A stretch of 27,110 nt of DNA from a virus (lineage: Duplodnaviria; Heunggongvirae; Uroviricota; Caudoviricetes): the IMG/VR virus record IMGVR_UViG_2534681878_000029; one strand, given 5' to 3'. The translations under genes and the position numbers were made by a program. Below, in pieces: positions 2,661 to 24,476 of this stretch. How positions within the stretch are numbered: the stretch's first letter is position 1; each line of letters opens with the position of its first letter. A model generated the notes under the pieces. It had not been told where the DNA came from, searched no databases, and worked only from the letters and a program-made list of their open reading frames with translations.

Positions 2661-2701
2661 GTTCACAGATAAAACACTCTCCAGGAAACCCGGGGCGGTT
2701 C

Positions 2702-3054
2702 AAGGCTGTTTTTCGAGTTTTTCTTAACTCTTCATGCAGCTCCGTTCTCAGAATATATGATTTTTCGAGTTTGAAATTCTTGCGACCAGGCGTCTTATTG
2801 CCAGGCTCAGGAAGTGGAAGGCGTGTTTGAATGTCGAGTGGTGGACAGTCATAGAAGTAAATTCTATAAAGCTCAAGCGGTTCCCTACGTTCTTGTGATT
2901 GACGTTTTCCATTAAGATGGGAAAGAACCATTGACCATATTACTTTCATTATGCATTGCGCAGTCAGTTCATGCTCGGCGAAGTGTTTACGATGCGTAGC
3001 ATGAACACGCTGCATGAAAAAACCCGCATCAATTAAAATTGCTGCTTTCTTCAT
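2702..3054 (-). pseudogene. cI-downstream gene of unknown function, 5' ~117 codons retained, 3' end replaced by IS629
   Basis: ORF starts 128 bp downstream of the cI stop (the position rexA occupies in lambda) with MKKAAILIDAGFF...; from residue ~118 the reading frame runs into the antisense of IS629, so the native 3' end is lost. Confidence 0.5.
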
Positions 3055-3181
3055 AAGAGTCCCAAAAAAATAGCCCAGAGCCGTTATGCAGATATTAACA
3101 ATTGTCTGCGAACGGGGCTGGGCTTGGTTTAATTAATCTATGCCAAGTTGACTGTGCCGTCAACATAAAACTTACTTCCTA

Positions 3182-3898
<717 letters not shown>

Positions 3899-5635: not shown

Positions 5636-5677
5636 TGAACCGCCCCGGGTTTCCTGGAGAGTGTTTTATCTGTGAAC

Positions 5678-6568
5678 TCAGGCTGCCAGATCATCGTTTC
5701 CGATGGAAGCATAATAAGCTTTTTCTGCTTCTGCCGGAGGGATATGACCCAGCCTTCCCAGCAATCGTCGATTGTTATACCAGTCCACCCACGTGAGTGT
5801 GGCCAGTTCCACTTCTGCACGGTTTTTCCAGCTCTTACGGTGTATTACCTCCGCTTTGTAAAGACCATTGATGCTCTCCGCCATCGCGTTGTCATACGAG
5901 TCACCTGTACTCCCTGTTGATGCCAGCAGTTTTGCTTCTTTTAGTCGCTCCGTATAGGCCAGTGATACATACTGAGAACCTTTATCACTGTGATGGACTG
6001 TGCCGGACGGCCGACGGGCCCACAACGCCTGCTCCAGTGCATCCAGCACGAATGTCGTTTCCATAGACGATGAGACTCGCCACCCCACGATGTATCCGGC
6101 AAACACATCAATGATAAACGCCACATAGACGAAGCCCTGCCATGTGCTGACGTAAGTAAAATCAGCCACCCACAGCTGGTCAGGTCGTTCTGCCACGAAC
6201 TGACGGTTTACGCGGTCGCCTGCGGCAACGGCTTTCCGGCTGATGGTCGTACGGACCTTTTTACCCCGGAGAACACCGGCAAGTCCCATAACCGCCATGA
6301 GACGTGCCACTGTACATCTGGCCACCCTGATTCCTTCCCGTAACAACTGACGCCAGACTTTACGCACACCGTACACCTGATGATTTTCATCGTATACGCG
6401 CTGTATCTCTCTCTTCAGCCAGTCGTCGTGCTGCGCACGGGCACTGCGTTTATCCGGATGATGTCGCTGTTGCTGACAATGGTAATACGTTGACGGGGCA
6501 ATATGCAGTTCGCTGCATACCGGTCCGACCCCGTACTGCTCACGCAGCTTATCCAGCAGTGGCATCAT
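5678..6568 (-). CDS. IS3-family transposase OrfB (copy 2)
   Basis: 296 aa, ~99% identical to the 1770-2660 product (e.g. I192V, G212K, T278I differences). Confidence 0.9.
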
Positions 6569-6891
6569 TTTTTCCAGAGGCGGTCGAACTCCGCCTTCGC
6601 AAAATAAGCGGAAGCCTGGCGAAGGATATCGTTACTGCGGCGCAGTTCACGATTTTCACGTTCCAGCTCTTTCAGACGCTGACGTTCAGCGCTGGTGAGC
6701 CCACCATCACCGCCCCCGGTATCCCGCTCATGCTGGCGAACCCAGACACGCAGAGTCTCCGGCGTACAGCCAATCTTTGGGGCAATGGAACAAATTGCCG
6801 CCCACTGTGAGTCATATTCATCCTGACTTTCCAGAACCATACGAATCGCCCGCTGACGGACTTCGGGGGAAAAACGAGTATTTTTAGTCAT
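6565..6891 (-). CDS. IS3-family transposase OrfA (copy 2)
   Basis: C-terminal 108 aa of the 316-aa track ORF are identical to OrfA of copy 1; the ATG is at 6889-6891 (reverse strand). The upstream 208 aa of the track ORF are antisense read-through and not called. Confidence 0.9.
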
Positions 6892-6944
6892 CCTGTTTAC
6901 CTCTTTCTCAGGGAGTTTAGTCTCCAGGATTTCCGGGCGGTTCA

Positions 6945-7977
6945 AGGACATGACGATATCGGTCTGGGTCTTTCCTGATACTGATATTTCAGATGTATCG
7001 CGTGAGTTAATTGCGGCAATTAAACAGGGGTATCTAACAGTAAAAGCCGCCGGGGTATGGGCGGGGGGCATTGAAACACCTTCGGTGGAAACTCCATCGG
7101 AAGGCTCTAAATTTTTTGGTTTTGATATGGATAACGAATTCATCAGTGGTTTTGATGTAGGGGCATGGGGAGTATTACTCTGATGGCGAAAAATGACTTT
7201 AAAGCGTTTGCAACTGATCGAAATGCCAATGTTATGTCGCAGGAGGAATGGGAAGCGTTGCCTGCGCTTATATCCGGATTTACAGCAGGGAAAGCATCCA
7301 GTGCGCAAGTCAATAAGGTTATTCGGCAGGCCAGCTTTATTGCTGCAGCTCTGGCCCAGTTTGTAAGTGATAAAACGCAACGGGATGTGCTTGATAATGG
7401 TGATCTGCCCGGTTTTGTTGAATTGCTGGGATCGGGGTTTGCTGTTGAATACCTGAGCCGCAAGAATCCGTTTGGCGATATCAAATCGGACGGCACGGTG
7501 AAAACGGCTCTTCAAAACCTTGGTTTGGGAGAAGGTGCTCCAGCTATTGGCGTTCCGTTCTTCTGGCCGTCCGCTGCAATGCCAAATACTGTAATCGACA
7601 GCTGGTCCTGTATGGTGTTTTTGAAGTTCAACGGCGCGAAATTCTCTGCCACTGATTATCCTGTGCTGGCGAAAGTGTTTCCTTCGCTGGTATTACCTGA
7701 AGCCCGCGGTGATTTCATTCGTATCTGGGATGACGGGCGAGGTGCAGACGGTGGTCGCGAATTATTAAGCTGGCAGGCAGCTACAAACTTTTCTCAGTTT
7801 GCCGGGAATATAGGCGAAGGTGCGGGACACGCAATTAACTTTCATGATGGCATCGCCGGAAATCAGCCAGGATTTTCACGATTTAATTTCACCAGTAACT
7901 CTGTGGGTGATGGTGTGAATTTTGTTGCAGTCAGACCGCGAAATATTGCATTTAACTTTCTGGTGAGGGCTAAATAA
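6945..7977 (+). pseudogene. stf: Side tail fibre gene 3' remnant (C-terminal receptor-binding segment), 5' end removed at the IS629 junction
   Basis: ORF 7165-7977 (270 aa) is immediately followed by a tail-fibre assembly gene. The preceding 220 bp are open in another frame (6950-7183). No N-terminal tail-fibre shaft is present because the IS629 end is at 6944. Confidence 0.65.
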
Positions 7978-8570
7978 TGAAACCTGTTTTTGATGAAAAT
8001 GGGCTGGCTACAGTGCCGGGCGATATGCGTTGTTTTTATTATGATGCTGAAACATCTGAGTATACGGGCTGGTCTGATGAATATATTAATACTGGCGTAA
8101 GTATGCCCGCCTGTTCCACTGGTATTGACCCTGGCGAAAACATTCCGGGAAGAGTGGCAGTATTTACAGGTAAGGGATGGAGCCATGAAGAAGACCATCG
8201 CAATGAGACTGTTTACTCAATCGAAAATGGCGCAGCTGTTACAGTGGATTATATCGGTGCCATCAAAGACGGTTATGTCACGATTTCACCGTTAACGCCA
8301 TACGATAAATGGGATGGTGAGAAATGGGTGACAGACACTGAGGCACAACACAGTGCCGCAGTAGACGCGGCAGAAGCACAGCGCCAATCACTGATTGATG
8401 CAGCAATGGCTTCCATTAGTCTGATTCAGCTGAAGTTACAGGCCGGACGGAAACTGACTCAGGCAGAAACAACCCGACTTAACGCCGTGCTGGATTACAT
8501 TGACGCGGTGACGGCAACAGATACCAGCACCGCGCCGGATGTCATCTGGCCTGAACTGCCGGAGGCGTAG
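7977..8570 (+). CDS. tfa: Tail fibre assembly protein (Tfa-like chaperone)
   Basis: 197 aa; start overlaps the stf stop (TAATG). Its C-terminal motif ...LDYIDAVTATDTSTAPDVIWPELPEA has a counterpart in the convergent paralogue at 8542-8994 (...LDYLDALELVDTSGAPDIEWPTPPAVQAR). Confidence 0.85.
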   Translation: MKPVFDENGLATVPGDMRCFYYDAETSEYTGWSDEYINTGVSMPACSTGIDPGENIPGRVAVFTGKGWSHEEDHRNETVYSIENGAAVTVDYIGAIKDGYVTISPLTPYDKWDGEKWVTDTEAQHSAAVDAAEAQRQSLIDAAMASISLIQLKLQAGRKLTQAETTRLNAVLDYIDAVTATDTSTAPDVIWPELPEA

Positions 8571-8994
8571 GCCATTCAATATCTGGCGCACCGGAAGTAT
8601 CGACCAGCTCCAGTGCGTCCAGATAATCCAGCCACAAATTATATTGCGTCAGTTCGTCACCTTTCAGACGACCAATAGCCGCTTTACCGGGCCATTGCTT
8701 ACTGTTCATGTATTCGTTGGCCTGGTTAATTAGTAGCTGTCTTTCTGATTCAGTAATTTCAATAAGCTCTTCATGCGTGGGTGGAGGAATATCTGCCCAC
8801 GCAGGCAGCCCATCATCTCCGGCAATACGGATTTTTCCTTGTGGCGGTTCAGCCATAAACTCACTGATAATATTTTGATTTACTTCCTTAGCGTCTGATA
8901 AATCCCATCCCTCTGATTTATATTTATCAATCATATCCACAGGGAAAAAAGCATTATGCCTTGCGCTATAAACATATTCGTCCATATAAATCAC
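8542..8994 (-). CDS. Alternative tail fibre assembly protein (inverted-orientation paralogue)
   Basis: 150 aa, convergent with tfa and overlapping its 3' end; shares the C-terminal Tfa motif. This arrangement is typical of Pin/Gin/Cin invertible host-range cassettes. Confidence 0.8.
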   Translation of the reverse strand: MIYMDEYVYSARHNAFFPVDMIDKYKSEGWDLSDAKEVNQNIISEFMAEPPQGKIRIAGDDGLPAWADIPPPTHEELIEITESERQLLINQANEYMNSKQWPGKAAIGRLKGDELTQYNLWLDYLDALELVDTSGAPDIEWPTPPAVQAR

Positions 8995-9005
8995 CCTGAA
9001 TAAAA

Positions 9006-9419
9006 TTACTCACCAACAGCCCACCAACTGTAATTCATCGATACCGTGTCGCTGGTTGATGACGTTCTGTAAGCAGAATTAAAGCCGGTTAACGTTGGGC
9101 CTTCTGCAGTCATCACGAACCCTCGCCCAGCGCCTAAAGGCGCACCGCCATCACCAGAATGAGTAAGCATGGCGCAGTCCGCTTTTTTGGGGAAAGGGAT
9201 GCTGAATGTAATTCTCATTGTTTGCGTCGATAATGTCGGCGTAACCGCACCACGACCATATTGCAGGATTTTCCCGTTGGGTAATTTCATCCATCCATTA
9301 CCACTGGCAAAAGAGGCCATGTCCGGTATCTGATTTTCCCCTGTCCCCACATCCCGTTTTGCCGCTTCTCCCAAACCAACGTTTATGAAAATGCAGAAAT
9401 AACGAGCAAATGGCATCAT
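9006..9419 (-). CDS. Alternative tail fibre C-terminal cassette (silent orientation, no independent promoter expected)
   Basis: 137 aa ORF ending just upstream of the alternative tfa; Gly/Ser/Thr-rich like fibre tips; its 5' end overlaps the candidate crossover site at 9364-9389. Confidence 0.55.
   Translation of the reverse strand: MMPFARYFCIFINVGLGEAAKRDVGTGENQIPDMASFASGNGWMKLPNGKILQYGRGAVTPTLSTQTMRITFSIPFPKKADCAMLTHSGDGGAPLGAGRGFVMTAEGPTLTGFNSAYRTSSTSDTVSMNYSWWAVGE
9364..9389. promoter_or_regulatory. Candidate invertase crossover site (gix/pix-like 26-bp site)
   Basis: TTCTCCCAAACCAACGTTTATGAAAA fits the dyad pattern TTnnCnnAAACC-nn-GGTTTnnGnnAA known for Gin/Hin/Pin sites and lies just upstream of pin. 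I could not unambiguously locate the partner site. Confidence 0.45.
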
Positions 9420-9445
9420 TCCTGCTTTTGTCAGGGAGATCTACC

Positions 9446-10000
9446 ATGCTTATTGGCTATGTACGTGTGTCAACAAATGACCAGAACACAGATCTACAAC
9501 GTAATGCGCTGAACTGTGCAGGATGCGAGCTGATTTTTGAAGACAAGATAAGCGGTACAAAGTCCGAAAGGCCGGGACTGAAAAAACTGCTCAGGACATT
9601 ATCGGCAGGTGACACTCTGGTTGTCTGGAAACTGGATCGGCTGGGGCGCAGTATGCGGCATCTGGTCATTCTGGTTGAGGAGTTGCGCGAACGTGGCGTT
9701 AATTTTCGCAGCCTGACGGATGCTATTGATACCAGTACCCCAATGGGGCGCTTTTTCTTTCATGTGATGGGGGCCCTGGCTGAAATGGAACGAGAACTGA
9801 TTGTTGAACGAACAAAAGCTGGACTGGAAGCTGCTCGCGCACAGGGACGAATTGGTGGACGTCGTCCCAAACTTACACCAGAACAATGGGCGCAGGCCGG
9901 ACGATTAATTGCAGCAGGAATTCCTCGCCAGAAGGTAGCGATCATCTATGATGTTGGTGTATCGACACTGTATAAGAAGTTTCCGGCCGGAGATAAATGA
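9446..10000 (+). CDS. pin: Serine DNA invertase of the Pin/Gin/Hin family
   Basis: 184 aa from the ATG at 9446 (SD AGGGAG at 9434-9439): MLIGYVRVSTNDQNTDLQRNAL...VVWKLDRLGRSM...GRIGGRRPKL...; resolvase N-domain with catalytic Ser and C-terminal HTH. Confidence 0.9.
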   Translation: MLIGYVRVSTNDQNTDLQRNALNCAGCELIFEDKISGTKSERPGLKKLLRTLSAGDTLVVWKLDRLGRSMRHLVILVEELRERGVNFRSLTDAIDTSTPMGRFFFHVMGALAEMERELIVERTKAGLEAARAQGRIGGRRPKLTPEQWAQAGRLIAAGIPRQKVAIIYDVGVSTLYKKFPAGDK

Positions 10001-10057: not shown

Positions 10058-10927
<870 letters not shown>

Positions 10928-11010
10928 CTAACCCTTTGAATTTACATAGCGCAAAAAGATACCTTTCCTCATAATGTGAGCTAATTTTATGTTTCGTTTG
11001 ATGATCGGGT

Positions 11011-11072
11011 CGGTCTCGAAAACCGGAGTAGGGGCAACTCTACCGGGGGTTCAAATCCCCCTCTCTCCGCCA
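11011..11072 (+). tRNA. Partial tRNA-Ser (anticodon CGA, serU-like), 3' ~62 nt only: att-site remnant, not a functional gene
   Basis: CGGTCTCGAAAACCGGAGTAGGGGCAACTCTACCGGGGGTTCAAATCCCCCTCTCTCCGCCA matches the 3' part of enterobacterial tRNA-Ser(CGA) from the anticodon stem onward; the 5' D-arm and acceptor strand are absent. Confidence 0.8.
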
Positions 11073-11654
11073 CTTTATCAATGACTTATCTCCCGACTTC
11101 CCGTCTTGCTTTTCCTAAACAGAACAATCGTAGAATATTCTTGAAGGGTTAGATCGTCACTGTTTTCTGTTCGATACTGTGACATTCAGCACTTGATTCG
11201 CTATGGATCTGACAGGAAGGTTTTGAGCGAAAATCTGCAGTTATTCAGTCGTTTTCTTATCGGTCACCATTATTCTTTTAGACATTGATCCTACAAAGCT
11301 GCCGTAAAGTTGGTGGTGGGAACTGAAGTTGCGTAGAGAAGGGGTCAATACCCGGAGGCAAACATGGGCTGGCAAAAGTGTAGCGGTATTAGGCGCAGCT
11401 ATTTAGCCTAGTTATGTTTTATGAAAACTTGATATCATATAAGTGTCTTACTTATTGGCTGTAAATAAGTTTTTCCTAAGGAATTGTTTCTTGAGTATCA
11501 TTTGTAACTGTAACGGAATTTATAATCCTTTGCTTTATTGTTACGGTATTTTTTATCACACCCTATTTTTAGTGGTTTTTTATACTGAAGTTTGGCAAAG
11601 TGAACTTTATATACATATACTTCATCCTGGTTTCAGTTAAATTGGGGGGATGAT

Positions 11655-12398
11655 ATGGCAACTACATGTTCAGTTATATTGATTTTGGAGTCCTTTGATG
11701 TTTATTTCGGAAAAGAGAGTGTGTTTCTGGAGAGAGGTTCATCTGTACTTGTCGACTCTAGCTCTAGAGATTTTTTCCTGACATATCCTGAAAGAGTGAT
11801 AGTGGCGGATTTTGGCGCTGAGTTTATTAGTCGCTATTTGAAAGCTAATAACTTAAGGGATATTTCTGATTGTAGGGAATATCCATCTTATTTAAAAATA
11901 AACTTTGCTGACTTCAGTTTAATTAAAGGATTAATTAGTTGGGCTAATCACTGTGCTGAATACATAGAAATTTTTGATGAGTCTATTGCTTTTACATGTC
12001 TCTCTGCATTTTCTTCTGAAAAACAATTTGGAGTATTTCTGTTTGGATGTTTGAAAAGCACAGGGGCTAAAGTTAAAACGATTATTCATACGGATTTATC
12101 TGCACCATGGCGTCTTAAGGATATATCATCAAGATTATATCTCAGCGAAAGTTTACTAAAGAGGAAATTGAAAGAAGAGGGGGTATCATTCAGTAAGATC
12201 ATACTTGATGAGAGGATGCAAATGGCTGAATATTTACTCAGCACTCGTTGTTATCCTATTAGTAAAGTAGCTAAGGTCTGTGGTTATGCCAGTGTCTCAT
12301 ACTTTACTTATGTATTTAGACGTTATTTTGGTGTTTCTCCAAGTCAATACTCTCAGAGGAGTTCAGAAAGTAAAATTCTTACTCACCAGGGAATCTGA
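11655..12398 (+). CDS. AraC/XylS-family transcriptional regulator (AppY/GadX-like)
   Basis: 247 aa, strong SD GGGGGGA before the ATG; N-terminus MATTCSVILILESFD resembles AppY (MDYVCSVVFICQSFD); C-terminal AraC-type HTH (...KVAKVCGYASVSYFTYVFRRYFGVSPSQY). Sits in an AT-rich segment. Confidence 0.8.
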   Translation: MATTCSVILILESFDVYFGKESVFLERGSSVLVDSSSRDFFLTYPERVIVADFGAEFISRYLKANNLRDISDCREYPSYLKINFADFSLIKGLISWANHCAEYIEIFDESIAFTCLSAFSSEKQFGVFLFGCLKSTGAKVKTIIHTDLSAPWRLKDISSRLYLSESLLKRKLKEEGVSFSKIILDERMQMAEYLLSTRCYPISKVAKVCGYASVSYFTYVFRRYFGVSPSQYSQRSSESKILTHQGI

Positions 12399-12439
12399 TC
12401 ATTGTTCTTGCCCCCTTATTTCCAGACAGGGGGGGTATC

Positions 12440-12805
12440 TTAAGTTAACGTTACCCGCTGACGTCGATATTCTCGCGGAGAGCGATAACCCAACGCACTG
12501 TGCGGATGGTTTTCATTGTAATGTTCGATCGCCACTGCAAGATTATGCAATGCCGTTCTTACATTCGGTTTCGGCATGAACGCGATGTAGTCTTCCTTCA
12601 TCGTTTTCACGAACCTTTCTGCAATTCCATTACTCTGAGGACTGCTGATTGCCGTTGTGCAGGGCTCCAGATTCAACTCTCTGGCGAACTGCCGTGTTTC
12701 ATGCGCTCTATACGCTGAACCGTTATCTGTCAGCCACTGGATGGACTGTTCCGGTACTTTATCGCCAAAGCGTTTTTCTATCGCTCCTAACATGACATCC
12801 TGCAC
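12440..12805 (-). pseudogene. IS3-family (IS2-group) transposase OrfB C-terminal fragment
   Basis: 121 aa ...[51 protein letters not shown]...[14 protein letters not shown] resembles the IS2 InsD C-terminus; no intact upstream catalytic domain or OrfA. Confidence 0.8.
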
Positions 12806-13152
12806 TGTCGCTTTATCGTAACCTCCCGTGCTTGCGGCCCAGTCTATGGCTTCACGATCGCAACAGTCCAGGGCGATTCATCTGGGCCAATCCTTGCTCA
12901 TAACAGGCATTCACTTCAGTCATGGCAGAAAGGTATGCATGCTGGAGAAGTCGTGAAAGAAAAGAAGACTGCTGCGCCGTTTGTCGTCACGTTTATCTTC
13001 ATTGGCTATGCAAGTCGTAATACAAGGTGGGACAAAACTGAGACACATAAGGCCTCGCAATGGCTTGCAAGGCTTTACATGTTTTGATGTGGTGGGACGT
13101 GTGAGCGCAGTGTTGATGGGGTAATGCTTTGAATTAGAAGCGGATTCTTATA

Positions 13153-13198
13153 ATTCGTAATGCGAAGGTCGTAGGTTCGACTCCTATTATCGGCACCA
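13153..13198 (+). tRNA. Partial tRNA-Thr (anticodon CGU, thrW-like), 3' ~46 nt only: attL core of the P4-like element
   Basis: ATTCGTAATGCGAAGGTCGTAGGTTCGACTCCTATTATCGGCACCA equals the 3' part of tRNA-Thr(CGU) from the anticodon loop; the upstream sequence is unrelated to the tRNA 5' half. Confidence 0.8.
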
Positions 13199-13360
13199 TC
13201 TCAACTTCCTCAAACGTCCGTATTAGTCCATAAAATCTCTGATTTATAACATTTTTTATTCTTTTAAGTCCATAGTAGTCCGTAACCATCCAGTAGAATC
13301 CGGTACTGAATGTGTATAGGATTGTGTATATGTTCCTGTTCGGTCTGGATTCCTATACAC

Positions 13361-14542
13361 ATGCCTTTAAACGATATGCAGATTCGCCGCGCTAAGCCTG
13401 AAGCTAAAGCCTATACATTTGGAGATGGGCTAGGGTTGTCATTACTTATAGAACCTAATGGAAGCAAGAGTTGGCGGTTCCGCTATCGCTATGCCGGCAA
13501 ACCCAAAATGATCTCGCTTGGTGTTTACCCAACGATCACCCTTGCCGATGCTCGTTCCCGTCGTGATGAAGCTCGAAAACTTGTGGCAGAAGGAAAGAAC
13601 CCTAGTGAGGTTCGAAAAGAGCAAAAGCTAGCTATGCAAACAGAGTCAGAGAACGCCTTCGAAAAGATAGCCAGAGAGTGGCATCAACTTAAATCTGCTA
13701 AATGGTCGGCGGGATATGCATCAGACATCATGGAAGCGTTTAAGAACGACATTTTTCCTTATGTCGGAACAAGGCCTGTGGGAGAGATTAAACCGCTAGA
13801 GCTGCTGAACGTTCTGCGTAAAATTGAGAAACGTGGTGCGTTGGAGAAAATGCGCAAAGTGCGGCAGCGTTGCTCCGAAGTGTTTCGCTACGCAATTGCA
13901 ACGGGTAGGGCGGAGTACAATCCTGCGGCTGATCTCTCCAGCGCTCTCGAAGTACACCAATCCAATCATTTCCCATTCCTAAAAGCTGATGAGATACCTG
14001 ATTTTCTACGTGCCTTAGAGGGTTACTCCGGGAGTAAGCTTGTCCAGATAGCCACGAAATTACTGATGATTACGGGTGTGAGAACCATCGAATTACGCGC
14101 GGCATTATGGCAAGAATTTGATCTGGATAACGCTATTTGGGAAATTCCTGCTGAAAGGATGAAAATGCGTAGGCCACATCTTGTGCCCTTATCATCTCAA
14201 GCGGTAGATTTACTCAATGAACTCAAGATCATGACAGGGAACTATCGTTATGTTTTTCCAGGGCGGAACGATCCGAATAGGCCAATGAGCGAAGCGAGTA
14301 TAAATCAAGCCATTAAGCGTATTGGGTATGGAGGAAAAGTCACTGGACATGGTTTTCGTCATACCCTTTCTACAATCCTGCATGAGCAAGGTTTTGAGAG
14401 TGCTTGGATTGAAATCCAGTTGGCTCATGTAGATAAAAATTCTATTAGGGGGACTTATAACCATGCTCAATATTTTAGTGGAAGGAAGTCTATGATGGAC
14501 TGGTACAGTAATTTGATATTTGAAAGACTAAAAAGGAGTTAA
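13361..14542 (+). CDS. int: P4-type tyrosine integrase (IntA/IntS-like, DUF4102 N-domain)
   Basis: MPLNDMQIRRAKPEAKAYTFGDGLGLSLLIEPNGSKSWRFRYRYAGKPK... with the C-terminal R...HGFRHT...Y catalytic signature; directly downstream of the tRNA-Thr fragment. Start moved to the ATG at 13361 because the track extension overlaps an inverted repeat. Confidence 0.9.
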   Translation: MPLNDMQIRRAKPEAKAYTFGDGLGLSLLIEPNGSKSWRFRYRYAGKPKMISLGVYPTITLADARSRRDEARKLVAEGKNPSEVRKEQKLAMQTESENAFEKIAREWHQLKSAKWSAGYASDIMEAFKNDIFPYVGTRPVGEIKPLELLNVLRKIEKRGALEKMRKVRQRCSEVFRYAIATGRAEYNPAADLSSALEVHQSNHFPFLKADEIPDFLRALEGYSGSKLVQIATKLLMITGVRTIELRAALWQEFDLDNAIWEIPAERMKMRRPHLVPLSSQAVDLLNELKIMTGNYRYVFPGRNDPNRPMSEASINQAIKRIGYGGKVTGHGFRHTLSTILHEQGFESAWIEIQLAHVDKNSIRGTYNHAQYFSGRKSMMDWYSNLIFERLKRS

Positions 14543-14545
14543 TTT

Positions 14546-14962
14546 GTGTCTCAACCACTTTCGGAAATATTGACATGGGATGATGAACAATGGGAGGTAT
14601 TTGTCCATGATTGGCTTATTGTCTGTAAATCAGATGATTACCCGTGGAGCGAACGTTTGGGAGGAGCTGGAGATAAAGGTAGAGACGTTGTTGGATATAA
14701 ATCGGATCCTAACGTAGAAGGTTATTCTTGGGATAATTATCAATGCAAACTGTACAAAAAAAGTTTAGGGTTCTCTGATGTTGTAGTTGAGTTTGGAAAA
14801 CTTATCTATTTTACTCTGAATGGTGATTATCCCATCCCTCAGAAGTACTTTTTTGTGGCACCCTATGATTTATCTACTACATTTTCTAATTTATTGAAAA
14901 ATAAAAACGAGCTTAAAAAAGCAGTCCTTGATTCATGGGATTCAGCAATTTCAAAAAAATAA
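14546..14962 (+). CDS. Mrr-like PD-(D/E)xK nuclease-domain protein (candidate effector, N-terminal part)
   Basis: GTG start 4 nt after the int stop with SD AAGGAG at 14533-14538. Motif GGAGDKGRDVVGY ... YQCKLYKK (residues 39-72) matches the Mrr_cat pattern g-DgG-D ... QcK. AT-rich. Confidence 0.6.
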   Translation: MSQPLSEILTWDDEQWEVFVHDWLIVCKSDDYPWSERLGGAGDKGRDVVGYKSDPNVEGYSWDNYQCKLYKKSLGFSDVVVEFGKLIYFTLNGDYPIPQKYFFVAPYDLSTTFSNLLKNKNELKKAVLDSWDSAISKK

Positions 14963-15552
14963 CTAAAAAGATTGATATTCCATTAGATGATGAAATAAAA
15001 AAATATATTGAGGATTTTGATTTTAGTATTTTTTACTCTCTACCCTTATCATTGATTTTAAATGATATTGCAAATACACACCTTTATTTTAAGTACTTTA
15101 ACGAGCTGTATGTCGTGAGAATCCCTCCAAATGAAATTCCAACATACAATTCAAAAAAAGAGTCTGTATATGTTAATGCACTGCTTCAAGCCTATTCAGA
15201 GCATGGAAATAAAACTTATAGTTCTTTCTTAGAGCTTGATGATCCATACAGACGACACTTTAATAATAGTAGAAATGATTTTTATTTTGCATCTTCGCTT
15301 GAGGTTTTTGTCCGCGAAGTATTTAAAGATGATGTATTCAAAGCATTGAAATGTTACATTTCATCTTCAATTGAACCCGTCTTTTATGAAGACCATAATT
15401 ATGCATTTATTAGGTGTAATGCAGTCTTGAAGCAGGCTGTTCTGACACCAATTGCACATTCAGTACTATCAAAAATATGTGAAGCAAATGATAAAAAAGG
15501 AATATGCCATCATTTGGTTAATGATGGTGAAGTAATTTGGACGGTGAGATAA
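14935..15552 (+). CDS. Hypothetical protein; possibly the C-terminal continuation of the preceding ORF via -1 frameshift at an A7 run
   Basis: 205 aa ORF overlapping the previous one by 28 nt in the -1 frame; the overlap contains AAAAAAA (14953-14959) followed by the 0-frame stop; no recognisable motif. Confidence 0.5.
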   Translation: MGFSNFKKITKKIDIPLDDEIKKYIEDFDFSIFYSLPLSLILNDIANTHLYFKYFNELYVVRIPPNEIPTYNSKKESVYVNALLQAYSEHGNKTYSSFLELDDPYRRHFNNSRNDFYFASSLEVFVREVFKDDVFKALKCYISSSIEPVFYEDHNYAFIRCNAVLKQAVLTPIAHSVLSKICEANDKKGICHHLVNDGEVIWTVR

Positions 15553-16010
15553 TGGTTAGAATTTATAATTCAAGTTTAGAAGTGGCATGTCGAATGGCGA
15601 AAGTGCTCGTCGCTATTTATCCTTCTTCATTAAGCCTTGAACGGCTTATTTGTTTTGATTTTATTTTAGTAAATCTTAAGGATTTTTTACCTGAAGAGAT
15701 TAGTCTTCATCCTCCAATACCCCGTAGAGATGCTCAGTTAGCCCTAAAACGAGAGATTGTTTTAGAATCATTGGCTTTGTTGCAAGGCTATGAACTAGCC
15801 TCAAAAATTTATACACATCGTGGTTTTGTATATAAAGCTTCTGAAAAAACATATGCATTTACAAATTCTCTACATAATGAATATGTTGCGCAGATGGAGC
15901 ATAATATAAATTTGGTGGTTAAGTTATATAGTGATATTCCTGATGAGCAGTTGCAATCAATTATAAAAAATAAAATTGGCAAATATGATATGGAATTTAA
16001 TTATGAATGA
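15552..16010 (+). CDS. Hypothetical small protein (middle component)
   Basis: 152 aa from the ATG at 15552, overlapping the upstream stop as TAATG (translational coupling); no recognisable motif. Confidence 0.5.
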   Translation: MVRIYNSSLEVACRMAKVLVAIYPSSLSLERLICFDFILVNLKDFLPEEISLHPPIPRRDAQLALKREIVLESLALLQGYELASKIYTHRGFVYKASEKTYAFTNSLHNEYVAQMEHNINLVVKLYSDIPDEQLQSIIKNKIGKYDMEFNYE

Positions 16011-16635
16011 CAATTTTTTTACGTTCAGAAAAATAAAGGTAACCGGATTCAATAAATTAGATGCTATAATTGAATTTGGTTCTAAATTGACTATTTTATA
16101 TGGTGGTTCTGACTCTGGAAAAACATACATATATTATTTGATTCGATATTTATTAGGGAGTGAAAAACTAAAAAATAAAGATATCGATCATGCTCAAGGT
16201 TATGATTTAGCCTATCTGGAATTTAATTTTCAAGGTAGGGTAATGACAATTGAGAGGTCTCTTCAGGATAGCGCCCATTACAGATTATATGATTCGAGCA
16301 TTGAAAATGTTAGTGAAGCTAATCTGTTGATGGTTTTTTCCAAAAGTGCTTCGTCTAAAAAGAGTTTTTCATCATACTTTTATGGTAGGTTGAATTTCAA
16401 AGAGGCTAAAGTAAGAACAAACTTAAGTAATACTCTTCATAAATTTAATCTTAATAATGTTTTTGAATTTTTTTGTATTGATGAATTAAGAGTGTTAACT
16501 GAGAAGTCGTTAATTCTTTCTGATATTCCTAGCGAGGAGACAAAAAGAAAGTCTGAATTTAAATTCCTTTTAACTCAGAGAGATGATACTAACTCCTTAG
16601 CAGAAAAACCAAATAAAAAAGCAAGATATTTTTAA
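15985..16635 (+). CDS. ABC/SMC-like ATPase, N-terminal head with Walker A
   Basis: FRKIKVTGFNKLDAIIEFGSKLTILYGGSDSGKT: the SMC/RecF/RecN-type N-terminal strand followed by P-loop GGSDSGKT (nt 16102-16125). Start uncertain (ATG 15985 or 16003). Confidence 0.6.
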   Translation: MIWNLIMNDNFFTFRKIKVTGFNKLDAIIEFGSKLTILYGGSDSGKTYIYYLIRYLLGSEKLKNKDIDHAQGYDLAYLEFNFQGRVMTIERSLQDSAHYRLYDSSIENVSEANLLMVFSKSASSKKSFSSYFYGRLNFKEAKVRTNLSNTLHKFNLNNVFEFFCIDELRVLTEKSLILSDIPSEETKRKSEFKFLLTQRDDTNSLAEKPNKKARYF

Positions 16636-16665
16636 AAAAATCAAATTGCAAATATTTATGAGGAA

Positions 16666-17256
16666 TTGAAAGCGCAATTAATTTATCCTGAATATGATCA
16701 AGTCATTGTTTCAAGAGAACTTGAGAAAGTAGAGCAAGATATTGAATCATCGAAAGATATATTGAAAGGTATTGTTGATGCACTTGATGATAAGAAGCAA
16801 TTATTAAAAGAGTTAAGTGATGAATTATATTCAATCAGTGACAGGGAAAAATACTTATCATTACTCATTGAAAGATTTAGTCTTCTTAAAGACCAATACT
16901 TTATAGATCTACAAAGAATAGATGTTGTATCACAGGCGAATTTCTATTTAAATAATTTTGCAGATATTTATTGTGAGTTCTGTAATACACCGCAAAAAAA
17001 AGAAAATGAAATATCATATGATGATTGTTTTTTGTCGTGTAATGCAGAAAAATTGAAAATCAAAAGCCAGCTGAAAGGATTAATTGAATCAATCGGATCT
17101 AATGTTCGCGAACATGAATTAATTATGTTAAGAAAAAATGATGTTAATGAAATTTATCAATCAGAAAAAAGTGATTTTAAGACGTTAGAAGATAAAAATA
17201 TAAAACAATACATTCATCTCTTGAATCACTTTATGAATATAAAGACAATCTTTTAA
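16666..17256 (+). CDS. Coiled-coil segment, same frame as the preceding ORF and separated from it only by a single TAA
   Basis: 196 aa rich in heptad-like K/E/L/I repeats; the track start is TTG with no convincing SD; in frame with 15985-16635 across the TAA at 16633-16635. Confidence 0.5.
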   Translation: MKAQLIYPEYDQVIVSRELEKVEQDIESSKDILKGIVDALDDKKQLLKELSDELYSISDREKYLSLLIERFSLLKDQYFIDLQRIDVVSQANFYLNNFADIYCEFCNTPQKKENEISYDDCFLSCNAEKLKIKSQLKGLIESIGSNVREHELIMLRKNDVNEIYQSEKSDFKTLEDKNIKQYIHLLNHFMNIKTIF

Positions 17257-17822
17257 TGGATCACACAAAACATAGCATTCTATCTTCATTACAAGATAAA
17301 GAAGATGATGTTGACGAACTTAAATACTCCGCCGAGGACTTTGACTCCTTAACAGTAGCTGATTTGTATGATATAGAAATAGCGATGCAAGACTTTTTGA
17401 ATGATATAAATTTTGAAAATTCTAAAGATAACAAAGTGCGATTTGACGAAGATACATATGACTTTAATATCAATGGGAAACGCCGAGGAATGTTTGGTAA
17501 AGGTACCCGTGCAGTAATGCATGCTATATTTACCATTTGCTTTGCGGAATTTTTATCAAGAAAAGGGAATCCATTCATTGGATTTGTTGTGCTTGATAGT
17601 CCATTAGTGACGCACTTTGATAAAGATAGAGGGGGTTCTCTATCGGATGTTAATAGCGTCAGTCTCAGTGATTCATTTTATCACGCATTAATCAAAAGGG
17701 ACTATAATTTCCAGATTGTAATTCTTGAGAATAAAGGTCCGACGTTCCAAATAAAAATTAATGATGCAAATAAAATCCATAACTTAAATAAGAATGGAAG
17801 CTCTGGTTTTTATCCTGTTTAA
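17256..17822 (+). CDS. ABC/SMC-like ATPase, C-terminal head with signature-like and Walker B motifs
   Basis: ...RRGMFGKGTRAVMHAIFTICFAEF (signature-like region) followed ~20 aa later by IGFVVLDSP (Walker B-like hhhhD); ATG overlaps the upstream stop as TAATG. Confidence 0.55.
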   Translation: MDHTKHSILSSLQDKEDDVDELKYSAEDFDSLTVADLYDIEIAMQDFLNDINFENSKDNKVRFDEDTYDFNINGKRRGMFGKGTRAVMHAIFTICFAEFLSRKGNPFIGFVVLDSPLVTHFDKDRGGSLSDVNSVSLSDSFYHALIKRDYNFQIVILENKGPTFQIKINDANKIHNLNKNGSSGFYPV

Positions 17823-18231
17823 TACATTAAAAATATAACTGCTAATTGGGGTGCTCGAAATTATATTTCGTTTCGAGCGCTCAGTTCATTTCTAAATAAT
17901 TTGCAAAATTATTTTGGGTACTTTCGCCTCTACACTTCCTTCGGGTGGTTCCACAATAATGGATCTCACCGGCGTTTGATATTTTATAATCTAACCCCTT
18001 AGCGCGCGCAGCCCCCCACGCCTGCTCGCTTCGCTTAACAGACTGGTTTTCATGCATTCCGCAAATCGTCTCAGAAGCCACCACACAAGGGCTTTCGCGT
18101 CAAAAATGGTGCATGAGAATCATGCGTTTTCATGCGCTATAGACATGCACTCATGCGCTCTCAGGCCAGCCAGGGAAAAGGCGTAAAAAATCCCAGTACT
18201 GGACCGGGATTACGTGGGCTTTTTTTGCTAA

Positions 18232-18504
18232 TCAGACAGGAATTTGCTGACGGCTTGACAGCTTTGACGCGGAGCCATAGCGATTGAGAGTTTGCTGTTG
18301 TTTTTCCGGCATTTGTGCTTTCTCTGATTCCTGTTCATTGCGCCGGGGCTTCATGATTATCGTATCCACACTTTCCAGTGCGGTAAATGTGTAGGAACAT
18401 TCAAGATTCTGGCACTGATACCATGAGCGTTTAACCGATGGTGCTTCATAGGCGGAGGTTCTGGCGTGTGCCGTCGTACCGCATTCGGGACATTTAAGTG
18501 CCAT
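18232..18504 (-). CDS. Ogr/Delta-family zinc-finger late-gene transcriptional activator
   Basis: MALKCPECGTTAHARTSAYEAPSVKRSWYQCQNLECSYTFTALESV: the CxxC...AHARTS...QCxNxxC...TF pattern of P2 Ogr / P4 Delta. Confidence 0.85.
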   Translation of the reverse strand: MALKCPECGTTAHARTSAYEAPSVKRSWYQCQNLECSYTFTALESVDTIIMKPRRNEQESEKAQMPEKQQQTLNRYGSASKLSSRQQIPV

Positions 18505-18509
18505 TAATA

Positions 18510-19061
18510 TTACTCCTGCATGCCGTTAATGTAATCCAGACGTTGCTGAAAGCGCAGTTGTTGTGCAGGGGTGTAAGAGCTCTGGCAATCACGAACCATC
18601 ATGGGGTCAGGCATCACACCGGATTCATCCAGAATCATACGATAATCCCCGGCAATTTCAGGCGGTGTTATTGCCAGCTGGCGAACCAGAGCATTGCGTA
18701 ATATACGGGACGCAACGTCAACCCCTCCGCGCCCCTTCAGGAACGGAGCCAGTGCAGATGTCAGGGCTGCTCCATTCGCCTGCATAAAATTGCTGAGAGC
18801 GTCTTCTGTGCAGGCCTCCATCAGTTGATGCTGCGAGTAAATGCATTCGCGCGCAGCACAGTTAATTTGCCATTTCAGCACATCCAGATGTTCCCGCTGT
18901 AATTCGAGCTGTCGAGCATAATCTGCTGGTTTTTCCATGGCAGTGAGGAGTGATTCTATCTGTTGTTCAACGGCTTTTCGGCTCTCACTATGTCCAGCCC
19001 ACAGAATACGGGCATTTCTAAAACTGATAAGCGCTTGGTCTGGAGTGACTCGGGCCATCAT
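18510..19061 (-). CDS. psu: Psu-like protein (P4 polarity suppression / capsid decoration family)
   Basis: 183 aa; shares recalled P4 Psu motifs (KWQ[IV]N, HG[AT]ALA[AS]ALAP, TPAQ); co-oriented with the sid-like gene as in P4. Confidence 0.7.
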   Translation of the reverse strand: MMARVTPDQALISFRNARILWAGHSESRKAVEQQIESLLTAMEKPADYARQLELQREHLDVLKWQINCAARECIYSQHQLMEACTEDALSNFMQANGAALTSALAPFLKGRGGVDVASRILRNALVRQLAITPPEIAGDYRMILDESGVMPDPMMVRDCQSSYTPAQQLRFQQRLDYINGMQE

Positions 19062-19810
19062 ACTGCTTTCTCCTTCTCAGCACGTTCCTGACGAACCTTC
19101 ATTTTATGCATAGCTGCTGGAGAGAGTTTATTACTGAAATCCAGACGGGCCGCATAATCCGGGGCAACTCCCGCCAGTTTAAACACGGGGTCCTGTTCGG
19201 GCATCGCATCGTTAGTCAGAGCCGGTCTGGTGATATGTTTATGAATAAAATCTTTCAGCAGTGTGTCCGGGTCATTAACTGAATGCACCACACCGACAAC
19301 TGCGCTGGCTTCCCTGCCCATTGTTGATTTGAGCAGGCTTAGTGTCTGGATTAGTGCTTTTCCATGCGACTGCATAAAATCTTCCCAGATTTGTTTTGCG
19401 CGAATACCCACAAGGGTGTCGTGCGCGTGGATATACTTTCCGGCTAATTCCGCAGCCTCCTGCGGCAAAAGTGCATTTTCGCTTTCCTGAGCCGCCAGCA
19501 GCTCATCAAAATCCTCAAGCGTTTCTCGTCCCAGCGCAATTTCCGTGCGCAGTTTTTTCATTTCCTTTGAGACTACGCCCTGACTTTCACGAAATAGCGT
19601 GCGCCACTCCTCATTCAGGGCGTTCGTCGTGGCTTCCATTTCAGCGCGGCGCTGGCGGATTGTCGCAATATTATCCGCTGCCGCTTTTTGCTGACGACGT
19701 GCTTCAAGCCATGCAGATTTGGTGGCATTCACTTTCTCAAGCGCCTGTTGCGTCGAAACAGGGATAGAAATTTCAACGATCGGGTTATTGTTCTGTTCTG
19801 GGATTGTCAT
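19058..19810 (-). CDS. sid: Sid-like external scaffold protein (P4 capsid size determination family)
   Basis: 250 aa, Ala/Glu/Gln-rich helical protein upstream of psu in the same operon, divergent from the alpA/primase operon; resembles what I recall of P4 Sid (e.g. EEWRTLFRESQGVVS). Confidence 0.7.
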   Translation of the reverse strand: MTIPEQNNNPIVEISIPVSTQQALEKVNATKSAWLEARRQQKAAADNIATIRQRRAEMEATTNALNEEWRTLFRESQGVVSKEMKKLRTEIALGRETLEDFDELLAAQESENALLPQEAAELAGKYIHAHDTLVGIRAKQIWEDFMQSHGKALIQTLSLLKSTMGREASAVVGVVHSVNDPDTLLKDFIHKHITRPALTNDAMPEQDPVFKLAGVAPDYAARLDFSNKLSPAAMHKMKVRQERAEKEKAV

Positions 19811-19975
19811 GTCAGCACCTAGTGGTTTGTCGTGGTGTCAATTGTGCTGTGATGCATACAAAGCTGCCATTGAACGCCATTGTGCGAGCGACAAGACAAA
19901 GACTGAACCGCCCCGGACCTCTTTTGGCTAGCCAGAAAAGGCCTCGTTTAACTAAGGCTGTTTCAGACTTACCTT

Positions 19976-20196
19976 AACTATTCACTACTATTCACTTAGG
20001 TAAAAAAAATAGGTAATACAGAAGGTTATAAGGTGAAGGGTTGGCATGGCAGTATTCATCGACTGTTCATAACTGTTCACATGGGAATAAAATTATTTAT
20101 GGTATTTTTTCATAATGGGTGGTTTTTTTATTCCTCGTAGCTATTTGTTTTTTGCTCCTCACCACTATTCACCCTTATTCAGGAGTATTCAACAGG
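19976..20196. repeat. Cluster of ~9 degenerate octamer repeats T(A/G)TTCA(C/T): putative primase-binding iterons (P4 crr/ori-like)
   Basis: AACTATTCACTACTATTCAC (19977-19995), TATTCATCGACTGTTCATAACTGTTCACATGG (20053-20084), CACTATTCACCCTTATTCAGGAGTATTCAAC (20163-20193). P4 ori/crr use TGTTCACC-type octamers. Confidence 0.5.
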
Positions 20197-20743
20197 CACA
20201 TAAATAGACTGCATGTTTTTGCCGGGGAATAACATTTTCGCCTCTGGCCATGGTGTTGCATTTCATACTGATTTTTATAAAACTAGATCTGTCCGGTTCT
20301 TTATGGATTCATTCGGATATATTTTACGATTTAAGGTGATGTTATTTAATATCAAGGTTTTTATGCAGGCCCAATGTTTATAAGTTGGATGCGATTCAAA
20401 AATATGCCCGGAAATTGGGGCCTGCAATGCAAGGCCTCGTGTAGAAGTTGTACTGCCTTGCTGTATTGGCGGTGGGGTTAGCACTATCAGGTGCAATGAC
20501 CCATAGGATAGTAAACCCTGGGTGAATGGTAGTTCCTATTAATGCTCCTGTATTTATAGTCCGCAGGCATGGTATTTATTATGTCATTTTATATGGTTTA
20601 ATCGGGCTTTAAATTCCATAAAATCAATATGTGACGCTAAATAAAAAATGCGTGCGCAGGTGGTTTATATACACATAATAAGGAACTACCTGAACCCGGA
20701 TAAATTCATCCGGACTGTTGTGGAAATTAAAGAGGGTAGATAA

Positions 20744-21004
20744 ATGCGTAATATTTCTGTGTCTGCGCCAGCTCCTGCTGCGCCATTATTTCCTGTATCG
20801 AACCATCATGAGCGATTTTTACGCCTGCCTGAGGTGATGCACTTATGCGGGTTGTCCCGTTCGACCGTTTACGACCTGATCAGCCGCGATGCGTTTCCGA
20901 AGCAGATCCCGCTTGGCGGTAAAAATGTCGCCTGGGCACAGTCTGAGGTCAGCGCATGGATGGCGGACCGCATCAGCGCCCGTGGGCGGGGATGTGATGC
21001 ATGA
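20744..21004 (+). CDS. AlpA-family DNA-binding regulator (prophage excisionase/regulatory HTH)
   Basis: 86 aa; [52 protein letters not shown] is the AlpA/MerR-like HTH signature found in P4-like and CP4-57-like elements. Confidence 0.8.
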
Positions 21005-21554
21005 TGATACCTGCATACATTAAATACCTTTATTCTGGCTTGCTTACTGTCGTCATTTCCAGGTATAGTTTTTCCGCTGTCGCAAAATCGGCAGCCGGAA
21101 TTGGCGTTCCGTATAACTTATTGGCGACAATTGACGCCCCTTGCGTCTTTTTTTACGTCGTAGCTCAGGCACAACCATTTTCAGGGCTGTGGTGTTTATG
21201 CTTACACCATGGTTCTATCGAGATAATGGTAGTCCGGGCGGGGCAGCCTTCGGGCTGGCCGGTTTCCAATAAGGCCGGTTACGCCAACCCCGTTCGGGCT
21301 GCCACCAGTGAAATTGGCGTTTCCGGTGGTAGCAATAACCGCTACTTATTGGAGGCTGCCATCATGGCTACAATCCTCACCCCGTCACACCCGCAATATG
21401 TCTTTGTGTTTGCCGCAATCCGCCGTGCTGACACTCACCCCCGCATCTGTATGCTTCGCACTGTCTCCTGCGATGAGCGTTCCGCGCGCCGTTTGCTAGT
21501 CCGAGATTATGTACTCTCCCTTTCTGCACGGCTGCCTGCCGGGGAGGTGACGCT

Positions 21555-21776
21555 ATGAACCAGTTTGAGATTTCCTACGACGATGTTGTAAGGCTGAAAC
21601 ATTTACGCAATGTGGGTGAGTATGTAACTGGCATGGCAGTCCTGCAGGACTGTTATGAAAAGCCAGCAGGTGCCCAATGCGAACAACTGGTTTCCCTCAT
21701 TTATCTGATGACAGAGCAACTGGATGGAGTGGTGCAACGCTGCCATGACGACCTGATGAATGCGGAGGTGGCCTGA
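21555..21776 (+). CDS. Hypothetical small protein of the P4-like early operon
   Basis: 73 aa, ATGA start/stop overlaps with both neighbouring ORFs, co-oriented with the primase; no motif recognised. Confidence 0.45.
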
Positions 21777-22099: not shown

Positions 22100-22112
22100 G
22101 GAGGGCCGCACA

Positions 22113-24446: not shown

Positions 24447-24455
24447 CTGACCTAA

Positions 24456-24476
24456 GACCGGCTGTGCCGGTCTTAA
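24456..24476. terminator. Perfect 9-bp stem hairpin AAGACCGGC-TGT-GCCGGTCTT between convergent genes (candidate bidirectional terminator)
   Basis: Inverted repeat 10 nt after the primase stop; no strong U-tract on either side, so function as an intrinsic terminator is uncertain. Confidence 0.4.

Follow-up and report, generated by a model that had tools for sequence, protein, structure and literature searches.

Judged by its sequence, the window analysed here (the whole 27,110-nt stretch of DNA) is the thrW locus of E. coli O157:H7, holding the tandem elements Sp1 and Sp2. The two half-tRNAs within it are, with a probability of roughly 0.88, ordinary leftovers of phage integration: the thrW fragment forms the junction between Sp1 and Sp2, and the serU fragment is an old junction carried as cargo in Sp1. 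The locus is already known as the annotated Sp1/Sp2 tandem prophage region (CP-933H/CP-933I) of O157:H7 Sakai and EDL933, and both elements have been placed at thrW in the literature (PMC8190617). Two extra IS629 copies aside, the window is collinear with Sakai, EDL933 and ~283 complete genomes, the count referring to the 283 genomes that cover at least 80% of window positions 10500-14000. It corresponds to strain WS4202 plus two IS629 insertions, with aligned blocks that are 100.0%, 100.0% and 99.985% identical. In the Sakai RefSeq record, Sp1 lies at 300042-310627 and Sp2 at 310628-323514. The features that delimit the two elements, and the two insertions, are listed here by window position.

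1-975, minus strand: truncated SfIV/SfV-type tyrosine integrase of Sp1, pseudogene intD/ECs_0271 (Pfam Phage_integrase; Sakai annotation)
1395-2706, plus strand: IS629/IS1203 copy in Sp1, with an ALIL frameshift pseudoknot at 1728-1844; not at that site in WS4202 or Sakai
5636-6944, minus strand: second IS629/IS1203 copy, in inverted orientation, with an ALIL pseudoknot at 6494-6610 (minus strand); an insertion relative to WS4202
12877-13152, plus strand: end of the phage b region and P arm of an SfIV-type thrW attP (identity to SfIV and phi458)
13153-13199, plus strand: 47-bp repeat of the thrW 3' end, attR of Sp1 and attL of Sp2 (identity to thrW nt 31-76 plus T; repeat spacing)
13310-14542 (annotated start 13361), plus strand: P4-type integrase of Sp2 (Arm-DNA-bind_3, Phage_int_M, Phage_integrase, NF007246; annotation)
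26069-26084, plus strand: degenerate third copy of the thrW 3' end (TCCTATTATC-GCACCA), attR of Sp2, followed by native thrW downstream flank

An earlier note on this DNA had described two tRNA 3' fragments, Ser-CGA and Thr-CGU, without 5' halves. This description was accurate, as both are exact matches to the 3' ends of serU and thrW. The tRNA search that the note had called for found no intact tRNA gene inside the window: ARAGORN reported none, and Rfam reported none at gathering score, with the two fragments giving sub-threshold partial matches. The 5' acceptor and D arms are missing from both fragments, neither of which constitutes a functional tRNA gene, and it is very likely that neither has a present function. 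The statement that neither fragment belongs to a complete tRNA holds within the window but fails just outside it: all collinear genomes examined have an intact thrW 15 bp upstream of window base 1. Rather than being without a partner, the thrW fragment forms a normal attL/attR pair with this intact copy.

The thrW fragment is an exact 47-bp repeat comprising thrW nt 31-76 and one additional T. Its tRNA part is the 3' 46 nt (13153-13198), and no chance match of this kind is expected. The 47-bp copies are 10,586 bp apart, which is the annotated length of Sp1. The left junction of Sp1 was 99.2% identical to SfIV 23198-24183, which covers the core, the P' arm and int, and the right junction (window 13028-13199) was 98.3% identical to SfIV 23073-23244. 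The overlap between the two SfIV matches is precisely the 47-bp core, which shows that a single SfIV-type attP was split by integration. Window positions 12891-13199 additionally showed 88% identity to phage phi458. The arrangement at thrW therefore includes a copy of the tRNA end at the distal boundary, split attP arms and a tyrosine integrase adjoining the tRNA. On these sequence comparisons, Sp1 (CP-933H) is a defective, deleted phage of the SfIV/SfV type. Int-mediated recombination of its attP with thrW inserted Sp1 here; an intact thrW was left beside the now-truncated int, and the distal boundary of the prophage received a 47-bp duplicate of the thrW 3' end.

Sp2 (CP-933I) is placed directly beyond the 47-bp copy, which serves as both attR of Sp1 and attL of Sp2, and the degenerate third thrW copy closes Sp2. 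This right-hand repeat is a degenerate copy of 16-17 nt, and the annotated end of Sp2 in Sakai maps to window position 26068. Sp2 carries a C4 RNA and IsrK, both detected with Rfam, and primase, Psu and Ogr/Delta genes in the RefSeq annotation. It is a P4-like element by its integrase, C4 RNA, primase, psu/delta-like genes and flanking repeats. The successive integrations that the earlier note had considered are thus borne out for the thrW arrangement, in which two elements occupy one tRNA.

The serU fragment lies inside Sp1, ~2 kb before the thrW repeat, within a compact group of features.

10058-10831, minus strand: LEM-3-like GIY-YIG gene, the last gene of the right end of an e14/SfV-like phage arm (Pfam PF22945; RefSeq)
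10832-11010, plus strand: P arm "type B" of a serU-type attP, directly abutting the serU core (same sequence in MB15 and RMDEC332)
11011-11072, plus strand: 3' fragment of serU (tRNA-Ser CGA), core of the fossil attR (exact match; same 62-nt extent as in the SerU-LTIIb attR)
11073-11350, plus strand: 278 bp of native E. coli flank downstream of serU toward yodB, the B' arm (identity to the serU locus)
11351-11406, plus strand: remnant of the right end of an IS630-family element, joined to the serU flank at its inner breakpoint (55-nt match, 92.9%, to the transposase gene end and terminus)
11655-12398, plus strand: AraC/XylS-family regulator of 247 aa, ECs_0287 / Z0321, PatE by locus and literature, YdeO/GadX/AppY-like (domains, annotation, literature)
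12403-12876, minus strand: truncated IS3-family orfB (ISEc48 / IS2-like InsD), the right edge of the block (rve and rve_3 domains; Sakai repeat_region)

With K-12 serU as reference, the fragment matches serU nt 29-90 exactly over 62 nt, from the 5' strand of the anticodon stem through CCA and including the anticodon CGA; such a match was found in 0 of 100 shuffled controls. Core and flank together matched the serU locus at 96-97% identity in K-12 and in nearly all E. coli. A chimeric query of P arm, core and yodB flank was fully covered at 97% by MB15 and RMDEC332, whose prophages are truly located at serU, and in the complete, e14/SfV-like prophage at serU in strain MB15 the same GIY-YIG gene is the last before attR. 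The three parts of an attR (P-O-B') are therefore all present, namely the core block, the P arm of true serU prophages and the native flank. Sp1 is nevertheless not integrated at serU, since at its other end it has thrW and an SfIV-type int. Together with the attP arms matched at thrW, these junction matches support the earlier note in taking both fragments for att-core duplications left by tRNA-targeting integrases. Some serU matches began at query position 123 instead of 132. This is probably an extension of the alignment through partial similarity to the intact tRNA and not another junction.

The real serU locus of O157 is ~2.4 Mb away and has the normal order mtfA-serU-Sp14-yodB, being occupied by Sp14. 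The serU copy in Sp1 has 11 differences over 337 positions (96.7% identity) to the flank of the Sp14 attR of O157, compared to ~99% identity to phage-borne copies. A recent copy of the Sp14 attR was rejected as the source on the strength of these two values. The normal serU locus and the close match to the phage copies indicate that the serU piece arrived as phage cargo. Collectively, these matches identify the serU fragment not as a local scar but, with its 278 bp of serU-yodB flank, as the fossil attR of a serU-integrating phage.

This attR heads a 1.87-kb block in which it is followed by the IS630-family remnant, the AraC gene and the IS3-family remnant. The block was 98.8-99.3% identical over 1,867 bp in the lambdoid phages ev099, mEp332 and PhiR70_1. 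Strain TK3888 also has it in a lambdoid prophage, and isolate 602 has it in a full-length, Sp1-like prophage located at thrW. The match to the phage records stops at 12876. The IS3-family remnant, of which 12440-12876 (minus strand) encodes the C-terminal rve/rve_3 part of the transposase, is named "ISEc48, IS3 family, partial" in Sakai and "InsD/IS2" in phage records. Use of serU by the block-carrying phages was rejected for ev099, the carrier in which the att region was read and which has a canonical lambda attP core and int. The block is joined to either of two types of P arm, with the junction falling precisely at the core in both: type A is present in ev099, PhiR70_1, TK3888 and, in diverged form, SerU-LTIIb, and type B in Sp1, isolate 602 and MB15. 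Homologous recombination may account for two P arms meeting one block. Part of the block, as measured by coverage of window 10880-11660 (the serU fragment, flank, IS630-family remnant and region upstream of patE), was present in ~516 of 5,426 complete E. coli genomes. A chimeric K-12/window query for the patE block immediately after an intact serU matched none of these 5,426 genomes. The block circulates among temperate phages of differing specificity, including lambda att, thrW and a prophage adjoining argW/intS.

The P arm, the 62-nt core and 278 bp of serU-yodB intergenic DNA make up a complete serU attR junction. The IS630-family remnant links this junction to patE, which is AT-rich, and to the truncated IS3-family element, and the 1.87-kb block occupies the cargo slot adjoining attP. 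We infer a single illegitimate event, for instance an excision of the specialised-transduction type or an IS-mediated fusion, in which host DNA from beside a serU prophage was captured. Recombination in the serU core and flank (340 bp) would then have transferred the block from one phage backbone to another.

An AT-rich, AppY-like regulator and an IS2-group remnant had been noticed between the two fragments, and an AraC-family gene and an IS3-family remnant are indeed present there. The GC content is 32-36% across 11450-12350. The product of the ORF at 11655-12398 has a C-terminal AraC-type double HTH (HTH_AraC/HTH_18; PF00165, PF12833). Its best full-length NCBIfam match was YdeO, followed by GadX, and both were sub-threshold, with 148 bits against the equivalog cut-off of 348 for YdeO and 110 against 500 for GadX. 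Scores so far under both cut-offs suggest that the protein is a distinct paralogue. It is the only AraC-family gene product of Sp1/CP-933H, and EDL933 has an AraC gene at the same position. Z0321 has been named as the CP-933H regulator PatE (PMC2907692, PMC10877973), and PatE activates the gad and hdeAB genes and lowers LEE gene expression (PMC10877973). The assignment to PatE and the activation of acid resistance in trans have also been reported elsewhere (PMC11879457). By locus and literature, the AraC gene is very probably PatE, and the suggestion that this orphan regulator could act in trans is supported by the published work (PMC10877973, PMC11879457, PMC2907692). PatE would accordingly be the active part of the block, acting in trans on the gad/hde acid-resistance genes and the LEE genes, as published.

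The juxtaposition of serU and thrW had been taken by the earlier note to mark a rearrangement, in which the two chromosomal regions were joined directly or phages integrated in situ at both and IS-mediated deletions followed. The genuine chromosomal DNA from the serU flank and the IS remnants that bracket the regulator are consistent with such an origin. However, only 278 bp of flank are present, O157 retains its normal mtfA-serU-Sp14-yodB locus, and the copy in Sp1 is 11/337 off the native flank while being ~99% identical to copies in free phages. The block itself resides in free lambdoid phages, among them ev099 with its lambda attP. A synteny comparison had been proposed as the check on this reading, with collinearity as the result that would speak against it, and the region proved collinear with Sakai, EDL933 and ~283 genomes. 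These results make a rearrangement very improbable. An assembly artefact or chimeric contig across 11000-13200 has practically no likelihood: nothing spoke in its favour, and the identical arrangement is present in 283 independently finished genomes, including those of Sakai and EDL933.

Two further readings concern how the block came to sit in different phages. Independent captures of the serU flank by Sp1-type and ev099-type phages would fit the differing P arms, but the copies share the flank endpoint at 11350, the IS630-family remnant, patE and the IS3-family truncation point at ~99% identity. This shared structure argues for common descent of the block and renders separate captures hardly credible. 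The internal serU attR might instead still be active, as a portable landing pad or exchange point for serU-specific integrases, such that serU phages dock into phages of lambda att, thrW and argW specificity, or swap right arms with them, and thereby spread the patE block. The attR keeps the whole identity block with both strands of the anticodon stem, and the junction is at the same nucleotide for both P-arm types. In addition, strain A29 has a type B arm with serU nt 25-44 that is interrupted within the anticodon stem-loop, consistent with a crossover region at that point. Against this, the signature of nested integration (P arm A, the serU core and the P' arm (B) of an MB15-type phage) was found in 0 of 5,426 genomes, the same product arises from ordinary homologous recombination across the 340 bp of core and flank, and Sp1 is without a serU-type integrase. 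We consider a still-active site unlikely; if it were real, it would explain both the spread of the patE block and the joining of P arms at the same nucleotide. Our preferred reading remains a single capture followed by homologous exchange of the block as cargo.

A half-tRNA found in a prophage is not necessarily the sign of an integration or rearrangement at that site, and may be a travelling fossil attR with its host flank. This is a caution for annotators who delimit islands by tRNA fragments. The presence of patE in a compact, IS-bounded block common to inducible lambdoid phages would explain the spread of this acid-resistance regulator. The portable attR fossil is otherwise a minor footnote to an ordinary finding, the regulator being, by locus and literature, the published PatE.

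Compared to Sp1/Sp2 of Sakai and EDL933, the window has the same locus, att repeats and gene content and is essentially identical in sequence; relative to Sakai, it has two extra IS629 copies inside Sp1. The serU pseudo-tRNA/attR fossil carries no annotation in the Sakai feature table. PatE groups with the AraC-family acid-resistance regulators YdeO, AppY, GadX and PsrA-PsrB, the scores covering YdeO and GadX.

Sp1 has its integrase and attP type in common with the Sf phages, being 98-99% identical to SfIV, SfI, SfV and SfII, and likewise has its cargo on the P-arm side of attP. The cargo slot adjoining attP holds serotype-conversion (gtr) genes in Shigella Sf phages, whereas the cargo of Sp1 is the serU-attR/patE block. 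The attR sites of Sp14, SerU-LTIIb and MB15 have the identical 62-nt duplication followed by the yodB-side flank, and the P arm and GIY-YIG gene of Sp1 are the same as in the MB15 attR. In contrast to these serU-prophage sites, the junction in Sp1 lies away from serU and its flank ends after 278 bp at an IS remnant. With neither a partner attL nor a serU-type integrase, it is a relic inside another prophage.

In the specialised transducing phages lambda gal and lambda bio, host DNA beside att ends up next to a hybrid att. The block resembles the products of such aberrant excision in that att-adjacent host DNA lies in a phage beside a hybrid att. It differs in that just 278 bp were captured, without a host gene, and by a mechanism that we infer. 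Unlike phages of the lambda gal/bio type, the carriers of the block retain an integration module that is complete and has a different specificity.

Two 3' tRNA fragments lie in the window. Nucleotides 29-90 of serU (anticodon CGA), from the 5' strand of the anticodon stem to the CCA end, match 11011-11072 (+) exactly over 62 nt, and such a match arose in 0 of 100 shuffled sequences. Nucleotides 31-76 of thrW and one downstream T match 13153-13199 (+) exactly over 47 bp; the tRNA part stops at 13198, the end assigned to it in the earlier note. ARAGORN found no tRNA gene in the window, and Rfam gave no tRNA at gathering score, only sub-threshold partial matches over the two fragments. The earlier note was thus accurate in describing two 3' fragments without an intact tRNA, and right to read both as att scars.

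The window comes from E. coli O157:H7, where it corresponds to the already known thrW locus; published work places prophages Sp1 and Sp2 at thrW and Sp14 at serU (PMC8190617). Many O157:H7 genomes are 100% identical to window 10500-14000, which 283 genomes cover to at least 80% in one place. Intact thrW ends 15 bp before window base 1. The Sakai RefSeq annotation gives Sp1 a length of 10,586 bp ('prophage Sp1, lambda-like', 300042-310627) and Sp2 one of 12,887 bp ('prophage Sp2, P4-like', 310628-323514), the latter corresponding to window 13182-26068. The region is collinear with reference genomes, an outcome that the earlier note had itself named as refuting its interpretation. The sequence of strain WS4202 plus two IS629/IS1203 insertions, each of about 1.31 kb, accounts for the entire window.

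Features of the window
1395-2706, +, IS629/IS1203 copy in Sp1, absent from this site in WS4202 and Sakai
5636-6944, -, IS629/IS1203 copy in Sp1, inverted relative to the other and likewise absent from this site in WS4202 and Sakai
11655-12398, AraC-family ORF (247 aa), ECs_0287, with AraC-type HTH domains
12440-12876, -, C-terminal part of an IS3-family transposase, with rve/rve_3 domains
13310-14542, P4-type integrase of Sp2, directly after the thrW repeat, from domain/family matches
21076-21153 and 21222-21309, IsrK and C4 antisense RNA of Sp2
26069-26084, thrW 3' end repeated a third time in degenerate form, closing Sp2 (TCCTATTATC-GCACCA)

The exact pair of IS629/IS1203 insertions was found in none of the complete genomes listed. 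The two inverted copies flank the cI/cro/cII/O region of Sp1 and could invert this immunity region.

The two long thrW copies are spaced by 10,586 bp, exactly the annotated length of Sp1. At the left junction of Sp1, the thrW 3' part, the P' arm and a truncated int (window 1-975) match Shigella phage SfIV 23198-24183 at 99.2% identity and SfI, SfV and SfII at 98.5-98.7%. At the right junction, window 13028-13199 matches SfIV 23073-23244 at 98.3%. Since the overlap of these SfIV stretches is exactly the 47-bp core, they represent a single SfIV-type attP split by integration into thrW. On the other side of the repeat, Sp2 carries the P4-type integrase, C4 antisense RNA and IsrK, and beyond the degenerate third copy the sequence resembles the native thrW downstream flank. 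It follows that the thrW fragment is an att repeat common to both prophages, serving as attR of Sp1 and attL of Sp2. This double role is what successive integration of two elements into a single tRNA gene normally produces. The successive integrations suggested in the earlier note therefore hold for thrW, where the data show that an SfIV-type phage integrated and a P4-like element integrated in tandem with it.

The serU fragment makes up the core of an attR that is now a fossil. The 278 bp that follow the 62-nt core (window 11073-11350) are native serU-to-yodB intergenic DNA, 96-97% identical to K-12 and nearly every E. coli genome. Prophage SerU-LTIIb ends on its right in a pseudo-tRNA-Ser annotated with the same 62-nt extent and followed by yodB. 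A chimeric query, made of window 10600-11350 and the continuing K-12 flank, found complete prophages at chromosomal serU whose right end has the window's own GIY-YIG gene and P arm, then the 62-nt core and the flank, and leads into yodB; it was fully covered at 97% in strains MB15 and RMDEC332. Because complete prophages truly at serU have this same right end, window 10832-11350 is a bona fide attR (P-O-B': phage arm, core, bacterial flank) of a serU-specific phage. In MB15 the prophage, an e14/SfV-like myovirus of roughly 39 kb, occupies the interval from intact serU to yodB. The stretch from its attL (serU) to its integrase (7046-9434 of the MB15 comparison sequence) holds three hypothetical genes and is a second cargo slot, on the int side of the att site. 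Current integration of the Sp1 element at serU is excluded, as its partner end is thrW and the O157 serU locus is intact with Sp14.

This attR, a genuine serU junction with host flank, sits inside a cargo block shared by phages of different integration specificities. From 11010 to 12876, the block comprises the core and flank of serU, the end remnant of an IS630-family element, the AraC gene and a truncated IS3-family orfB. Copies 98.8-99.3% identical over 1,867 bp occur in three sequenced phages, PhiR70_1, ev099 and mEp332, between the tail-fibre genes and attP/int. As ev099 has a canonical lambda attP core and a lambda-type int, the block has nothing to do with the site where this phage integrates. 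In strain TK3888 the block closes a lambdoid prophage adjoining argW/intS, and in isolate 602 a full-length Sp1-like prophage at thrW carries it at its right end. Window 10880-11660, spanning the serU fragment, flank, IS630-family remnant and the sequence ahead of patE, is covered to at least 80% in about 516 of 5,426 complete genomes.

The Sp1 core and flank share about 99% identity with the phage copies, compared with 96.7% with the Sp14 attR flank of O157 (11 mismatches in 337), so the serU copy arrived with a phage rather than by copying within the genome. The rearrangement of the serU and thrW loci proposed in the earlier note is unsupported, given that the O157 serU locus is intact with Sp14 and the block is phage cargo. 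The two O157 copies of core and flank (window 11011-11350, and 2868-3204 of the comparison sequence with the Sp14 attR) share about 340 bp at that 96.7% identity; presumably they lie about 2.4 Mb apart in opposite orientation, and recombination between them could invert a large part of the chromosome. The serU pseudo-tRNA is without annotation in the Sakai record. Our sole, modest addition is that it belongs to a portable cargo block of attR plus patE.

Chromosomal homology of the serU flank stops at 11350. Window 11351-11406 matches the last ~55 nt of an IS630-family element (transposase gene end and terminus), so the flank is fused to an internal IS breakpoint. At the left edge the block is joined, at one and the same nucleotide, by two different P arms: type A in ev099, PhiR70_1 and TK3888, closely resembling the SerU-LTIIb arm, and type B in Sp1, isolate 602 and MB15. 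Strain A29 has the type-B arm and only serU nt 25-44, then unrelated DNA. Its prophage, a related one, adjoins ssrA and carries the same GIY-YIG gene and P arm as Sp1; the unrelated DNA includes a methyltransferase/restriction pair. The A29 break (about 7600-7640 of the A29 comparison sequence) falls within the anticodon stem-loop and may mark the crossover region of a serU-type integrase. We infer that the host flank was captured once, in an illegitimate event beside a serU prophage, either by specialised-transduction-type excision or by IS-mediated fusion. Recombination in the 340-bp core and flank would later have transferred the block between backbones. A source locus, in which the patE block would directly follow an intact serU, was found in 0 of 5,426 genomes, as was a nested-integration signature.

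The AraC-family gene has a GC content of 32-36%. The best full-length match of its product is YdeO, then GadX, both far below family cut-offs. ECs_0287 is the only AraC-family gene of Sp1, and EDL933 carries this gene in the corresponding position. Z0321 was described as a 'putative regulator (prophage CP-933H)' and as RpoS-dependent (PMC2907692) and was named PatE, which activates gadB, gadC, gadE and hdeAB and negatively regulates LEE genes (PMC10877973, PMC11879457). The locus suggests that ECs_0287 is identical to PatE. Action of the regulator in trans, raised in the earlier note, is supported by this published activity, with the identity drawn from the locus.

Sp1 and Sp2 have further features. 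In Sp1, a tail-fibre gene is fused directly to a remnant of replication gene P. At about 14546-17822, the Sp2 integrase is directly followed by a cluster with the annotation 'ABC-three component system' plus an AAA ATPase; the post-integrase site is a typical defence-cargo position in P4-like satellites. At about 7165-10000, Sp1 carries a Pin-type invertase with opposed tail-fibre and tail-fibre-assembly cassettes, kept in this defective prophage despite deletion of most structural genes. This invertase region is a host-range switch of the e14/Mu-like kind.
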